This document shows, piece by piece, positions 24,314 to 29,407 of a DNA stretch of 64,000 nt. The stretch covers positions 16,355 through 80,354 of the forward strand of contig JAGAOO010000006.1 of assembly GCA_017623675.1 (NCBI GenBank). The letters run 5' to 3'. Position 1 is the stretch's first letter. Every line of letters starts with the position of its first letter. The DNA is from Lachnospiraceae bacterium. GTDB lineage: Bacteria; Bacillota; Clostridia; Lachnospirales; Lachnospiraceae. Both the position numbers and the translations under genes were made by a program. The notes under the pieces were generated by a model that was not told the DNA's origin, made no database searches, and was given only the letters and a program-made list of their open reading frames with translations.

Positions 24314-25117
24314 TTATAAATTTCCTGCTATATAATCCTTTAAAACAGCCAGAAATTCTCTGGTATAATTGGTCGGTATCAGCCACCAGACAGATTTAGC
24401 AGGATTAGCAGAAACCTTCTGATAACCACAACCTTTAGCAAGCTGCACCGCTCGAAAAATATGAAAATCCGTTGTGGTTATTACTACGGATTGCGTATCC
24501 ACTTTGAAAAGCTCTGAAGCAAATAGCAGATTCTCTTTGGTGCTGGTAGACGACTCTTCCATTATAATACGGTCCGGTGCAATTCCCTGCGCCACCAGTT
24601 CATTATAAATGCATTGTGCTTCCGAAATTCTTTCATCTGTACCCTTGCCTCCACTGGCAATTACCATTGTATCCGGATTCTGTTTCAAATATTCCACTGC
24701 CGCATCAATCCGATATTTTAATATTAGAGAAGGCTGGGTTCCGTTTACTTTGGCTCCCAATACCAACAGATAATCCGCATTTTCCTCCGGCTTTCCTTTT
24801 CCATTGTGTATGATAATGGCTTCTATCACAATAAACAGCAGGAACCCGGCACCCACTATAAGCTCTACCGGTATCACTACCCATTTGGGTGGAATCTTCC
24901 CGTTTCCGGCATACTTACATATCAACAGTATCAAACCACTGCACAGAATTGCCAATAGCAGCCAAACATAATTAAAGGTACTCGCCGGTCCCAGCATCAG
25001 GAATATAAATATGAAATATATCAGACTACACCCGCCAATTACAGCCAGCAGGCCAATCCAAAACTTATATACTTTGCCCATTTTTTCATGCTCCTTTTTA
25101 TCGATTTCATTATCCAT
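24314..25117 (-). CDS. YdcF/DUF218 (ElyC/SanA-like) membrane-anchored protein
   Basis: N-terminal TM helices followed by a DUF218-like LLVLGAKVNG...IASGGKG...TTDFHIFRA. Confidence 0.7.
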   Translation of the reverse strand: MDNEIDKKEHEKMGKVYKFWIGLLAVIGGCSLIYFIFIFLMLGPASTFNYVWLLLAILCSGLILLICKYAGNGKIPPKWVVIPVELIVGAGFLLFIVIEAIIIHNGKGKPEENADYLLVLGAKVNGTQPSLILKYRIDAAVEYLKQNPDTMVIASGGKGTDERISEAQCIYNELVAQGIAPDRIIMEESSTSTKENLLFASELFKVDTQSVVITTTDFHIFRAVQLAKGCGYQKVSANPAKSVWWLIPTNYTREFLAVLKDYIAGNL

Positions 25118-25281
25118 TATTCTAAATCAATGCTATATCTTGTGGTGAAGCTGAAGTATCACCACAACCTAATGATACCTCATTTGGAGCCTTCATGCAA
25201 ATTGCCAATATACTCCCATTTTACAAGGCTTTTCCTATAGGAATGTACTAAAAAAAGTACACAGATTTTACCTAAATTTGA

Positions 25282-25310
25282 TTGACGTGTATACAATATG
25301 CATTTATAAT
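25282..25310 (+). promoter_or_regulatory. Sigma-A-type promoter upstream of the PFL locus
   Basis: TTGACG (25282-25287), 17-nt spacer, TATAAT (25305-25310), about 70 nt before the ATG. Confidence 0.55.
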
Positions 25311-25378
25311 GAAACCATAGAAATCGAAGGGAATTACCCTTTCATTTTATACTATATTTTTAAGGAGGATTTTACAAA

Positions 25379-27418
25379 ATGGGTTCTGAATGGAATGAAT
25401 TTGTAGGTGGCGAGTGGCAGAAAGTCGTTGACGTAAGAGACTTTATTCAAAAGAATTACACTCCATATGAGGGAGACGATGCTTTTCTTTGCGGACCTAC
25501 ACAGGCAACAAAAGACTTATGGGCACAGGTACTTGATTTATCTAAGAAGGAAAGAGAAGCCGGCGGTGTTTTGGATATGGATACCAAGGTTGTTTCTACT
25601 TTAACATCACATGGTCCTGGTTACCTTGACAAGGACAAGGAAAAGATTGTTGGTTTCCAGACTGATAAGCCTTTCAAGAGAGGTATGAATGTATACGGTG
25701 GTATCCGTATGGCTATGAAGGCTTGTGAAGATAATGGTTATAAGGTAGATCCTGAAATCGTTGAGTTCTTTACAACACACAGAAAGACACATAATGCCGG
25801 TGTATTCGATGTTTATGATGATGAAATCAGAAGATGCCGTACCAACCACATCATCACCGGTTTACCAGATGCTTATGGTCGTGGACGTATCATCGGTGAC
25901 TACAGAAGAGTTGCTCTTTATGGTACAGACTTCTTAATTAAAGACAAGAAAGCACAGAAGGAATCATTTGGTAACGTTTATACTGATGATGTTATCCGTG
26001 GCAAGGAAGAAATCGCTGAGCAGATTCGTGCTTTACAGGAATTAACCAAGATGGCTGCATCTTATGGTTTTGATATTTCTAAGCCAGCTTCAAATGTACA
26101 GGAAGCAATTCAGTGGACATACTTCGGATACTTAGGAGCAGTTAAGGAGCAGAACGGTGCAGCAATGTCCTTAGGACGTACCGCTACTTTCTTAGATATC
26201 TATGCTGAGAGAGACTTAAAGAATGGTAAATTTACTGAAGAAGAAATTCAGGAAATGATTGACCATTTCGTAATGAAGTTAAGACTTGTTAAGTTTGCTC
26301 GTACTCCAGAGTACAACCAGATTTTCGCTGGTGACCCTGTATGGGTAACTGAATCATTAGGTGGTATGGGTGTTGACGGACGTACCTTAGTTTCTAAGAT
26401 GAGCTTCCGTTACTTAAATACTTTGAATAACTTAGGTACCTCACCAGAGCCAAACATGACTGTATTATGGTCTACCAGACTTCCAATGGGTTGGAAGCAG
26501 TTCTGTGCAAAGATGTCTATCAAGTCTTCTTCTATCCAGTATGAGAACGATGACTTAATGAGACCTTTACATGGTGATGACTATGGTATCGCATGCTGCG
26601 TATCTTCTATGGTTATCGGTAAGGAAATGCAGTTCTTCGGTGCTAGAGCAAACCTTGCTAAGTGCTTACTGTATGCTATCAACGGTGGTGTTGATGAATG
26701 TACCGGTGTACAGGTTGGCCCTAAGTATCGTCCAGTTGAGGGTGATGTCCTTGACTATGATGATGTAATGGCTAAGTTCGATGATATGATGGAATGGTTA
26801 GCACGTGTATATGTAAGTGCTTTGAACATCATCCACTATATGCACGACAAGTATGCTTATGAGAGAATTCAGATGGCATTACATGACAGAGATGTTAAGA
26901 GATACTTTGCAACCGGTGTTGCAGGTCTTTCCGTAGTAGCTGACTCATTATCAGCAATCAAGTATGCAACTGTTAAGCCAATCCGTAACGAGCAGGGTAT
27001 TGTTGTAAGCTATGAAACAACTGGCGACTTCCCTAAGTATGGTAATAACGATGACCGTGTTGACTCAATCGCAACTCAGATTGTAACAACCTTCATGGAT
27101 AAGCTTCGTAAGCACCATGTATACAGAAATGGTATCCCAACACAGTCTATCTTAACCATTACTTCTAACGTAACATATGGTAAGAATACAGGTGATACTC
27201 CATGTGGTAGAAAGCACGGTGCACCATTTGCTCCAGGTGCTAACCCACTTCACCAGAGAGATACTCACGGTGCTGTCGCTTCTCTGTCTTCAGTAGCTAA
27301 GATTCCATTTAAGGATGCTCAGGATGGTATTTCTAATACCTTCACAATCATCCCAGGTGCTCTTGGTAAGGAAGATCAGATTTTCGCTGGCGACATCGAT
27401 ATCGATTTAAGCAAATAA
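25379..27418 (+). CDS. pflB: Pyruvate formate-lyase core, lacking the C-terminal glycyl-radical domain
   Basis: 679 aa with active-site ...[10 protein letters not shown]... and ...PGALGKED. It then ends in a 12-aa tail and a stop where normal PFLs continue into the Gly-radical domain. Confidence 0.9.
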
Positions 27419-27463
27419 TTGGCTGACTTATAGTCCGCTATTTCAAACCAAGGAGGTTTTAAT

Positions 27464-27679
27464 ATGGGCGATAAATTAAGTACAGTCGATGACATTGTAT
27501 CAATGTTAGACAATATGATGGGGAATGGCCACGGACATGTAAATGTGTCCGTGGAAGACCCAAACGGTTCCTTAGATAAAGCAGTTGAAACCTTGGGTTG
27601 CACAGATTGTGCAAAAGGAGATCTGGCTTGTCAGGTACCAACCTTAATGGAAGGTATGGATGAGGAACTAAAAAAGTAA
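27464..27679 (+). CDS. Small protein, partial paralog of the start of the PFL glycyl-radical domain, with a Cys-containing tail
   Basis: 71 aa. SD AAGGAGG lies 7 nt upstream. VDDIVSMLDNMMGNGHGHVNVSV parallels [23 protein letters not shown] of the next ORF. The tail contains CTDCAKGDLAC. Confidence 0.55.
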   Translation: MGDKLSTVDDIVSMLDNMMGNGHGHVNVSVEDPNGSLDKAVETLGCTDCAKGDLACQVPTLMEGMDEELKK

Positions 27680-27724
27680 CAATCATATATTATTCAATTA
27701 TATTAAAATTAGGAGGTAATTATT

Positions 27725-27964
27725 ATGGCAGCAACACAGCAGGTTGATAACTTAGTAAACATGTTAGACGGATACGTTTCTAAAGGCGGATATCACTTAA
27801 ATGTAAACGTATTGAACAGAGATACTTTACTTGATGCTCAGAAGCATCCAGAAAACTATCCACAGTTAACAATTCGTGTATCTGGATATGCAGTAAACTT
27901 CATCAAATTAACTCCAGAGCAGCAGAACGACGTTATCTCAAGAACATTCCACGAGGCTATGTAG
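27725..27964 (+). CDS. Free-standing glycyl-radical domain (GrcA/YfiD-like autonomous glycyl radical cofactor)
   Basis: 79 aa. SD TAGGAGG lies 7 nt upstream. ...[35 protein letters not shown] carries the RVSGYAV radical-glycine motif. Confidence 0.9.
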
Positions 27965-28049
27965 TCTAGCTACAAGCCATGCAAAAATAGCAGCTATTGG
28001 TCAAAGAGTGTGCTTGCACACTCTTGACTGATGGCTGTTATTTTTATAC

Positions 28050-28239
28050 GGCGACAGCCGTCTACCGAGTCGTAACGAAGTGAAGACGAGGTAGTGCATG
28101 GCTTGTAGCATGTGGGCGACAGCCGTCTACCGAGTCGTAACGAAGTGAAGGCGAGATAGGCATGGCTTGTAGCATGTGGGCGACAGCCGTCTACCGAGTC
28201 GTAACGAAGTGAAGACGAGGTAGTGCATGGCTTGTAGCA
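28050..28239 (+). repeat. Tandem intergenic repeat array (3 units, 65/64/61 nt)
   Basis: GGCGACAGCCGTCTACCGAGTCGTAACGAAGTGAAGACGAGGTAGTGCATGGCTTGTAGC occurs three times with starts at 28050, 28115 and 28179. The period is not a multiple of 3. Confidence 0.9.
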
Positions 28240-28366
28240 ATCTTAGGAAGCATGCTTGCAACCAGTACCTAACAGTTGCCTTTCTCCCTTTAACAGGTGT
28301 ATAATAAACATGGTTTAAAGTTGAATAAGATCATAATTAAAATATTTTACTTTAGGAGGAATTATT

Positions 28367-29128
28367 ATGATTGGACATATACATTCTATTGAAACCTTTG
28401 GTACCGTAGATGGCCCTGGTACCCGATTCGTTGTATTTTTTAAGGGTTGTCCTATGCGGTGTGCCTACTGCCATAACCCTGACACTTGGGAATTAACTGG
28501 TGGCGAGGACAAAACCGTAGAAGAGATTTTAGATTATTATGACCAAAACAAAGAATTCTACATGAATGGTGGCGGTTTAACTGCTACCGGTGGGGAACCA
28601 TTGGTTCAGATTGATTTTCTGATTGAATTATTCACACAAGCAAAAGCCAAAGGAATTCACACATGTCTGGACACTTCCGGTATTATGTTCCGCAGAAACG
28701 AGCCAGAGGTTCTTGCCAAATTTGATAGACTTTGCAAGGTAACCGATTTAGTCATGCTGGATATTAAGCACATTGATCCGGAAGGGCACAAGAAACTGAC
28801 CAAACAGCCAAATGACAATATTCTTGACTTTGCCAAGTATCTGGCAGAACAGAATATTCCTATTTGGATTCGCCATGTCATTGTTCCGGGCATTACCGAT
28901 CAGGAAGATGAATTAACCCGTTTAGGTTATTTTATCGGCGGTTTACCGAATTTAAAGGCATTAGACGTGCTTCCGTATCATACAATGGGAGAAGCAAAGT
29001 ATAAAAAATTAGGAATTGATTACCCATTAGAGGGTGTGCCTGCATTAACCAGCAATGAAGCTATTATTGCCAAGTCACATATTATAGACGGAATCAAGAA
29101 ACGCAGAAGTGAATTAGCAGCGAACTAG
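28367..29128 (+). CDS. pflA: Pyruvate formate-lyase activating enzyme (radical SAM)
   Basis: GCPMRCAYCHNPDTW CxxxCxxC motif; 253 aa. Confidence 0.93.
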   Translation: MIGHIHSIETFGTVDGPGTRFVVFFKGCPMRCAYCHNPDTWELTGGEDKTVEEILDYYDQNKEFYMNGGGLTATGGEPLVQIDFLIELFTQAKAKGIHTCLDTSGIMFRRNEPEVLAKFDRLCKVTDLVMLDIKHIDPEGHKKLTKQPNDNILDFAKYLAEQNIPIWIRHVIVPGITDQEDELTRLGYFIGGLPNLKALDVLPYHTMGEAKYKKLGIDYPLEGVPALTSNEAIIAKSHIIDGIKKRRSELAAN

Positions 29129-29236
29129 CATGTTGGCGAAATTTTGACATTTTTCCTAAAAGTTCTACTTGCTATAATGCATAAAAAGGCTTAAAATCAA
29201 TTTATGATGATGAAAAAATAAGGAGGATTTACGTTA

Positions 29237-29407
29237 TGGCATTCGTTATTTCTGACGCTTGTTTATCATGTGGTGCTTGTGCCGGCTCTTGTCCGGTTGG
29301 TGCTATCTCTGAAGGTGATGGACAGTTTGTAATCGATGCAGATACCTGCATCAGCTGTGGTTCTTGTGCTGGTTCTTGTCCGGCAGGAGCAATTTCAGAA
29401 GAGTAAT
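29237..29407 (+). CDS. fdx: Clostridial-type 2x[4Fe-4S] ferredoxin
   Basis: Own translation (below the ORF-track cutoff): MAFVISDACLSCGACAGSCPVGAISEGDGQFVIDADTCISCGSCAGSCPAGAISEE. SD AAGGAGG upstream. Extended -10 TGCTATAAT at 29170-29178. Confidence 0.9.

Follow-up and report, generated by a model that had tools for sequence, protein, structure and literature searches.

The product of a small open reading frame (sORF) located between the core gene and the radical-domain gene of a split PFL is probably (with a likelihood of about 75%) a dedicated third, accessory part of this enzyme, which is otherwise built from a core and an exchangeable GrcA3 subunit. The third-subunit reading is based on the homology of both halves of the sORF product, the complementary distribution of its Cys motif in cis on the core and in trans on the sORF, its strict linkage to split PFL, and strong purifying selection. 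The locus was analyzed in a stretch of 64,000 nucleotides from a Lachnospiraceae bacterium, hereafter the window, and all features of the window described below are on the forward strand.

The PFL core subunit of 679 aa is encoded at 25379..27418. It covers positions 2-664 of the 744 positions of TIGR01255 (1094.7 bits), matches PF02901 and carries the catalytic Cys-Cys at residues 406-407. The core lacks the Gly loop and stops just ahead of the first helix of the glycyl radical domain, ending in an acidic tail (27359..27415) for which comparison of the tails of 135 cores gave the conserved pattern ALGK-ED-x-[IV]F-x-GD-[IL]-[DE]-[IVL]-[DE]-L. The sORF (27464..27679, 71 aa), listed as the third gene of the split-PFL operon, begins with an ATG that is preceded at a distance of 7 nt by the Shine-Dalgarno sequence AAGGAGG (27450..27456). 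It is followed by the GrcA3-type radical subunit of 79 aa (27725..27964), which contains RVSGYAV and matches NF038360 (160.9 bits versus a cut-off of 158) as well as PF01228. The original prediction of a 71-aa ORF with a canonical Shine-Dalgarno sequence between the PFL core and its radical domain was thus confirmed in gene order and coordinates.

Further downstream lie the PFL-activating enzyme, a radical SAM protein of 253 aa (28367..29128; TIGR02493, 296.9 bits versus a cut-off of 231.75) whose only significant Pfam matches are Radical_SAM and Fer4_12, and a ferredoxin of 56 aa with two CxxCxxCxxxCP-type cysteine motifs (29236..29406). Of 80 related loci, 46 gave a tblastn match to this ferredoxin, a frequent neighbor that could plausibly donate electrons to the activase. 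No SPASM/twitch-type maturase, as used for RiPP precursors such as SCIFF, was found beside the sORF, the neighboring radical SAM enzyme being the standard PFL activase. An upstream DUF1858 "redox disulfide" gene was considered as a partner and rejected, since it is within reach in only 23 of 80 loci. A promoter and terminator scan of positions 25000-28450 gave nothing above the shuffled expectation and no terminator-like site between core, sORF and grcA3. In the rest of the genome (94% complete, 2.8 Mb), the only further glycine-radical match is to a frame of 709 aa located on a different contig; this frame showed no tblastn match to the PFL core query, and the split enzyme therefore appears to be the only PFL of this genome.

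Three parts can be distinguished in the sORF product. The N-module (residues 1-34, 27464..27565) consists of a predicted helix and the strand-like HVNVSV, and has its homologous counterpart in the radical subunit, namely in the first helix and strand beta10. A linker that varies in both length and sequence (residues 35-42, 27566..27589) leads to the Cys motif (residues 43-68, 27590..27667), in which C46, C49 and C56 are followed by V-P-T-L-x-E-G-x-D. That the ORF starts in parallel with the radical domain, as had been noticed previously, was substantiated by BLASTP against the GrcA3 of the window (13 of 31 positions identical, residues 8-38 versus 7-37, E 1e-5) and by hhalign of an sORF profile (82 sequences) against a GrcA3 profile (15 sequences), which aligned the first 34 residues (96.7%, E 3.5e-10, 34 columns) and left the C-terminal half of the sORF family unaligned. 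The conserved positions of the N-module (D, I/L, M, L, D, G, H, N, V) are those conserved in GrcA3, and the GrcA3 model NF038360 recognized residues 7-38 as its positions 5-36 with 14.9 bits versus the cut-off of 158. The glycine loop is missing, in line with the original prediction: RVxG[FYW] was found neither in the sORF nor in any of its 82 aligned homologues. Pfam gave no match to the sORF, Gly_radical included, and NCBIfam only the weak GrcA3 N-terminal match. A Gly and an A...L spacing like that of G-Y-A-V-N-F-I-K-L would suggest that the Cys motif is related to the region of the glycine loop; such a relationship was considered but is not claimed, because hhalign leaves this half unaligned.

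In the family alignment of 82 sequences, C56 and P59 are invariant, and D16, G24, H25, C49 and A55 are conserved to at least 90%. The three Cys and His25 are all invariant in the clade of the window, whereas C49 and C56 are the only conserved Cys in the wider family, C46 not being among them. Family members of 60-90 aa follow the pattern I-D-D-I-V-x-M-L-D ... G-x-G-H-x-N-V, variable linker, C ... A-C-x-[VI]-P-[TN]-L (alignment A2), which is also present in the sORF of the window (first row of alignments A1 and A2). AF2 predictions of the free protein were of low confidence (pLDDT of 54.6 and 62.2 with the alignments of 34 and 82 sequences, respectively); only the N-terminal helix (residues 4-20) was predicted, and the linker was poorly ordered. 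The family profile gave only chance matches among PDB sequences, the best real one being a designed protein with an E-value of 0.0028.

The sORF product is a genuine small protein that is strongly conserved among Lachnospiraceae of the gut and rumen with split PFL. A word-indexed search returned 130 clusters at 90% identity (67-94 aa), all named ones being called "hypothetical", and a HMMER scan of 1.84 billion representatives returned 207 matches with E <= 1e-3, of which 61 had E <= 1e-10; these are representatives at 50% identity, corresponding to about 200 clusters, and include a few coiled-coil false positives. Nearly all HMMER matches are 60-90 aa long. The long ones were rejected as homologues: P0131, P0181 and P0262 were inspected and contain Glu/Lys-rich coiled-coil repeats that produce compositional false positives, and for P0135 and P0257 such repeats were deduced from the many matched stretches (5-22 in each of the long false-positive proteins). 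No Pfam or NCBIfam family was found to cover the sORF clusters.

Among GTDB species genomes, 110 stretches encode a relative of the sORF, and 80 loci were kept for comparison. The order core, sORF, GrcA3 is found in all 80, mostly with the activase next. The sORF is intact in every one of them, with a conserved ATG, a GGAGG-like sequence upstream in most, and a length of 67-80 aa after mis-called starts were set aside. Cultured carriers include Eubacterium ruminantium ATCC 17233 and FB3002 as well as Lachnospiraceae bacterium YSB2008 and C6A11. More distant homologues (P0127, P0129 and P0134), which by tblastn share 45-52% identity with the sORF of the window, likewise lie directly behind a truncated core. 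Pairwise dN/dS values (Nei-Gojobori), which are approximate as dS is near saturation (about 1.0-1.4), were 0.15 for the whole sORF and, by part, 0.14 for residues 1-30, 0.62 for residues 31-42 and 0.07 for residues 43-66; the same comparison gave an approximate 0.09 for GrcA3. Conservation at split-PFL loci in other genomes and dN/dS had been put forward as a check on the original prediction, and with 80 of 80 loci, a ratio of 0.15 and no frame disruptions this check came out positive.

To determine how the sORF is distributed, 401 Lachnospiraceae genomes, one representative per genus, were tallied by eye. The GrcA3 cut-off was passed by 134 of them, almost always in short frames, i.e. as split PFL. 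A full-length sORF match was present in 110, and 109 of these also have a GrcA3-type gene; in the single exception the sORF match is on a very short contig. GrcA3 occurs without an sORF in roughly 50-60 of the 401 genomes. Sampling across the class (82 families) detected the sORF in Lachnospiraceae and, beyond this family, in a single genus only, where the gene order is the same.

A second small protein of 69 aa is encoded in the same genome outside the window (G000:C29:31486-31695, corresponding to L166:1495-1704, forward strand; alignment A4). It has the same kind of N-module and another tail with an invariant H-H-G-R-C-D-V-G-S-P-W-A. By hhalign, this A4 family is related to the sORF family (96.5%, E 7.5e-10, 67 columns) and to GrcA3 (88%, E 3e-6). 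It comprises 86 clusters, is not covered by Pfam or NCBIfam, and occurs in 43 of the 401 Lachnospiraceae genera, 40 of them with split PFL and two (G104 and G123) with no match to the PFL radical domain. Its gene neighbors are an epimerase and a histidine phosphatase, and no PFL genes are among them. Separately, extra GrcA3-type genes with no PFL core within about 3 kb were observed at L106, L148, L152, L157 and L158 (in G313, G290, G040, G148 and G254, respectively). Another GrcA3-type gene or a split PFL locus is present elsewhere in G313, G040, G148 and G254, and none was seen in G290. These extra genes could be true spare-part copies.

Split PFLs share the Cys tail as an element that is located on the core in some loci and on the sORF in others. 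The 46 split loci without a neighboring sORF comprise 38 in which the Cys motif is fused to the C-terminus of the core, 5 with an orphan sORF elsewhere in the genome, and 3 (L129, L145 and L146) with neither form, which indicates that the Cys element is not indispensable. The cis cores run past the acidic tail (ALGK..F.GD.[DE].[DE]L) straight into a short Cys motif, and the motif shared by both arrangements is C-x(2-8)-C-x-[VI]-P-[TN]-L-x-E-G-x-D. Some cis tails are plainly the sORF motif (C-x(2-5)-C-x-I-P-N-L-x-E-G-L-D), while others have the compact form D-C-A-C-C-E-P-N. An HMM of sORF residues 40-68 detected 12 core tails at E < 1e-3 (best 2e-10, database size 1e5), and 720 shuffled tails used as a control reached a maximum of 8.1 bits. 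Cis tails carry 2-3 Cys and no His, the Cys spacing ranging from CC and CxC to C-x5-C, and the shortened sORFs at L113 and L115 end directly after CxxC. The common denominator of all variants is thus a Cys pair with variable spacing, and neither a conserved His nor a third or fourth ligand was found across the family. In L110, a natural single-chain PFL of 774 aa, the Cys insert CGCEEVTC is located at the junction of core and radical domain, the P-[TN]-L part being absent. The original prediction of a new Cys-rich tail therefore held in that the tail exists, but not in its being new, as it is common to split PFLs.

The five genomes with orphan sORFs all have split PFL, and four of their five cores have no cis tail, the core of G040 having only a short GGCKSC tail. 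The four orphans that were inspected adjoin proB/proA, riboflavin genes or a gene for a YitT-like membrane protein. In a subgroup of loci (L105, L118, L154 and L155) the order is core, activase, GrcA3, the core has a plain tail, and the orphan sORF is elsewhere. The orphans inspected from this subgroup (L087, L088 and L093) are near proB/proA or the YitT-like membrane protein and end in P-T-[IVM]-x-[LF] and an acidic stretch, not in P-T-L-x-E-G-x-D.

A tree of 85 cores was calculated with a quick maximum-likelihood method and rooted on five ordinary full-length PFLs. The split cores formed one clade (SH-aLRT 100), in which cis and trans forms are interleaved such that each label must change 6 times or more to satisfy the well-supported branches, and an AU test rejected a single cis/trans bipartition (delta lnL 419, p 8.9e-5). 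Together, the interleaving and the AU test indicate that the motif moved repeatedly between the two polypeptides, and this repeated movement argues that the cis and trans arrangements are functionally equivalent. Four single-chain full-length PFLs with a GrcA3-like C-terminus (L109, L111, L112 and L110, from G317, G102, G162 and G132, respectively) were located inside the split-core clade, which suggests re-fusion of core and radical subunit in these lineages. A separate observation concerns Cys376 of the core (window 26504-26506), 30 residues ahead of the catalytic Cys-Cys. It is invariant throughout the split cores (76 of 76) and the full-length PFLs nested among them (4 of 4), the position being Ala in all 5 ordinary full-length Lachnospiraceae PFLs of the outgroup. 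Cys376 could be a partner for the Cys tail.

As to its origin, the sORF resembles a fusion of the ~34 initial codons of grcA3 with the Cys motif found elsewhere at the end of the core. Exactly this chimera would result from a single tandem duplication running from the core tail through its stop codon and the spacer into the first part of grcA3, and in-frame deletions would turn the trans form back into the cis form. The core tree leaves the ancestral state undecided between cis and trans. At L141, L144, L145 and L153, the acidic core tail continues with IKLTPEQ or IELTPEQ. IKLTPEQ (L141 and L145) is identical to GrcA3 residues 60-66 (7 of 7, as compared on L141), and its spacing from a conserved Gly equals that in the radical loop (G-D-I-D-V-D-I-K-L-T-P-E-Q versus [13 protein letters not shown]). 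Judged from this sequence likeness, the acidic core tail may be a relic of the glycine finger or a product of recombination with grcA3.

In PFL, the first helix and strand of the radical domain pack into a 10-stranded barrel, a fold that is shared with class I/II ribonucleotide reductases (RNRs). The equivalent strand of the E. coli enzyme (beta10 or y-beta1) completes the barrel (PMC8683613). Cofactors of the GrcA/YfiD type (GrcA TIGR04365, GrcA2 NF008341, GrcA3 NF038360) resemble the sORF product in being small and encoded with or near PFL, and residues 1-34 of the sORF correspond to the first helix and strand of GrcA3. Unlike these cofactors, the sORF product has neither a glycine radical loop nor a C-terminal helix and carries the Cys motif instead; hence a role as a radical carrier of the kind known so far can be excluded. 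A partial parallel is provided by oxygen-cleaved E. coli PFL, in which a radical-less segment (residues 696-733) with a duplicate beta10 strand coexists with YfiD (Andorfer 2021, PMC8683613) and is needed for efficient rescue by the spare part (PMC8683613). The N-module of the sORF would supply such a duplicate strand, yet the E. coli segment is the leftover of a damaged chain with no gene of its own and no Cys motif.

With respect to the tail, the closest layout known to us is the flexible C-terminal Cys tail of class I/II RNRs. In the split class II RNR of Pseudomonas aeruginosa, this tail is carried by a separate polypeptide, NrdJb (Crona 2015, PMC4520616), for which binding close to the C-terminus of NrdJa was proposed (PMC4520616). 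Both systems have a Cys pair on a flexible C-terminal tail that is found in cis or, after a gene split, on a separate polypeptide; in split PFL, the motif is at the core C-terminus in 38 loci and on the sORF in others, and the linker is variable. This likeness is one of layout. The turnover of RNR creates an active-site disulfide that is reduced by the tail, whereas PFL has no known equivalent.

Small Cys-bearing accessory proteins beside the catalytic subunit of a glycyl radical enzyme (GRE) are also found in BSS (beta/gamma), HPAD (gamma) and MASS (beta/gamma/delta), and are thought to affect the dynamics of the radical domain or to protect the radical (PMC13450708). These subunits are HiPIP- or rubredoxin-like with four metal ligands, in contrast to the sORF family with its two conserved Cys and an N-module derived from the glycyl radical domain, and a profile search of PDB sequences gave no match between the sORF family and the Fe-S small subunits. 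A 2026 review of GREs lists small subunits only for HPAD, BSS and MASS and only spare parts for formate-lyases, and does not mention split PFL (PMC13450708). No description of GrcA3, split PFL or the sORF protein was found in the literature searched.

In the third-subunit reading, the Cys motif would be the working part and would act at the core near the attachment of the radical domain, because it is the most constrained segment and is kept in every arrangement. It would lie within reach of the core C-terminus, where the radical domain begins. In the trans form, the N-module would replace the peptide bond by a non-covalent anchor, a role suggested by its being a copy of the GrcA3 helix and beta10 strand that keeps the GrcA3-conserved positions. 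The original prediction that the protein acts on the PFL core is thereby backed indirectly, by its co-occurrence with split PFL and by the core-fused motif, but a pure plug that excludes the radical subunit fits poorly with a cis tail that is always present and with L110, which has the Cys insert and the radical domain in one chain.

For the mechanism, we tentatively prefer a mobile thiol/disulfide tail, at odds clearly below even. When GrcA3 is absent or swung out, such a tail would extend to the radical-domain pocket and the catalytic Cys-Cys and would protect, re-reduce or quench, and the N-module would fill the empty beta10 slot pending the docking of an activated GrcA3. Variable spacing of the Cys pair is more in keeping with a dithiol that is redox-active or donates H than with a fixed metal site. 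To our knowledge, no active-site disulfide occurs in PFL catalysis, so that the substrate of a redox tail is hypothetical. Should the N-module use the slot of the GrcA3 N-terminus, the two would be expected to compete, which is hard to square with cis tails and with the single chain of L110, in which the radical domain is present alongside a Cys-containing segment. Somewhat more speculative still is a three-part serviceable PFL, in which a long-lived core and a cheap exchangeable GrcA3 would be complemented by a mobile Cys-pair tail, provided in cis or in trans, that guards the catalytic Cys-Cys/radical site from within the vacated pocket in an RNR-like manner.

Alternatively, the sORF product could be a competitive placeholder or inhibitor, its N-module filling the helix/beta10 slot of the core instead of GrcA3 and its Cys loop occupying the site of the glycine finger; it would then keep the apo-core folded and inactive or set the amount of active core, and the cysteines would be only structural. 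The N-module retains the residues conserved in GrcA3, the free protein shows little order in AF2, in agreement with a protein that folds upon binding, and oxygen-cleaved or truncated PFL was reported to be prone to proteolysis and in need of a stand-in (PMC8683613). However, in 38 lineages the motif is permanently fused to the core and there is no N-module, and in L110 a Cys-containing insert shares one chain with the radical domain, so that the role of the motif cannot depend on excluding GrcA3. Moreover, the most constrained part is the Cys motif (approximate dN/dS of 0.07) and not the N-module, and we consider the placeholder unlikely. A small subunit with a function like that of BSS beta/gamma, HPAD gamma or MASS delta, which binds Zn, Fe or an iron-sulfur cluster through C46, C49, C56 and H25 (or H23) and thereby controls the mobility of the radical domain, appears less probable again. 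The three Cys and His25 are invariant in the clade of the window, and Cys-rich small subunits of unclear role are known for three GREs (PMC13450708), but the conservation of only C49 and C56 across the family, and cis tails with 2-3 Cys at spacings from adjacent to x5 and no His, are unlike a fixed metal site, and the profile search of PDB sequences gave no HiPIP or rubredoxin match.

That the protein is unrelated to PFL and merely co-located with it, for instance as a redox or stress protein or as a peptide modified by a radical SAM enzyme, is very improbable. Orphan copies beside proB/proA, riboflavin genes or a membrane protein gene and the lack of PFL linkage of the related A4 family would fit such a protein, but 109 of 110 carrier genomes have a GrcA3-type gene, all five orphan genomes have split PFL with four of the five cores devoid of a cis tail, the motif is core-fused in 38 lineages, and the neighboring radical SAM enzyme is the standard PFL activase (TIGR02493, 296.9 bits). 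Least credible of all is a spurious, functionless ORF or a decaying partial duplication of grcA3, the latter having been offered in the original prediction. The architecture does resemble a truncated copy, shortened versions exist in a few lineages (L113 and L115), and three split loci have no Cys element. Against this stand 80 of 80 intact loci with conserved start and Shine-Dalgarno sequence, a length of 67-80 aa, the low dN/dS (0.15, and 0.07 in the Cys tail) and 207 representatives at 50% identity, which together rule out a decaying duplicate.

Many fermenters of the gut and rumen convert pyruvate to acetyl-CoA and formate mainly through PFL, an enzyme whose oxygen sensitivity and cycle of activation, deactivation and repair are long-standing problems. 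A GrcA3-type gene is present in about one third of the sampled Lachnospiraceae genera, in nearly all of them as a short gene of its own and hence as split PFL, and in nearly all split loci examined the core or the small protein bears the Cys motif. An element of a central enzyme that is conserved and strongly selected was thus shifted repeatedly between two polypeptides, and the case illustrates how a small protein can come about when the beginning of a gene is fused to the end of the adjacent one. None of the described GRE small subunits belongs to a formate-lyase, and the sORF product looks like an undescribed third part of one. If the three-part serviceable PFL with its mobile tail holds true, a glycyl radical enzyme of the PFL type would for the first time be seen to use a thiol-tail mechanism, and the old question of PFL deactivation and repair in strict anaerobes exposed to oxygen would have a built-in answer.
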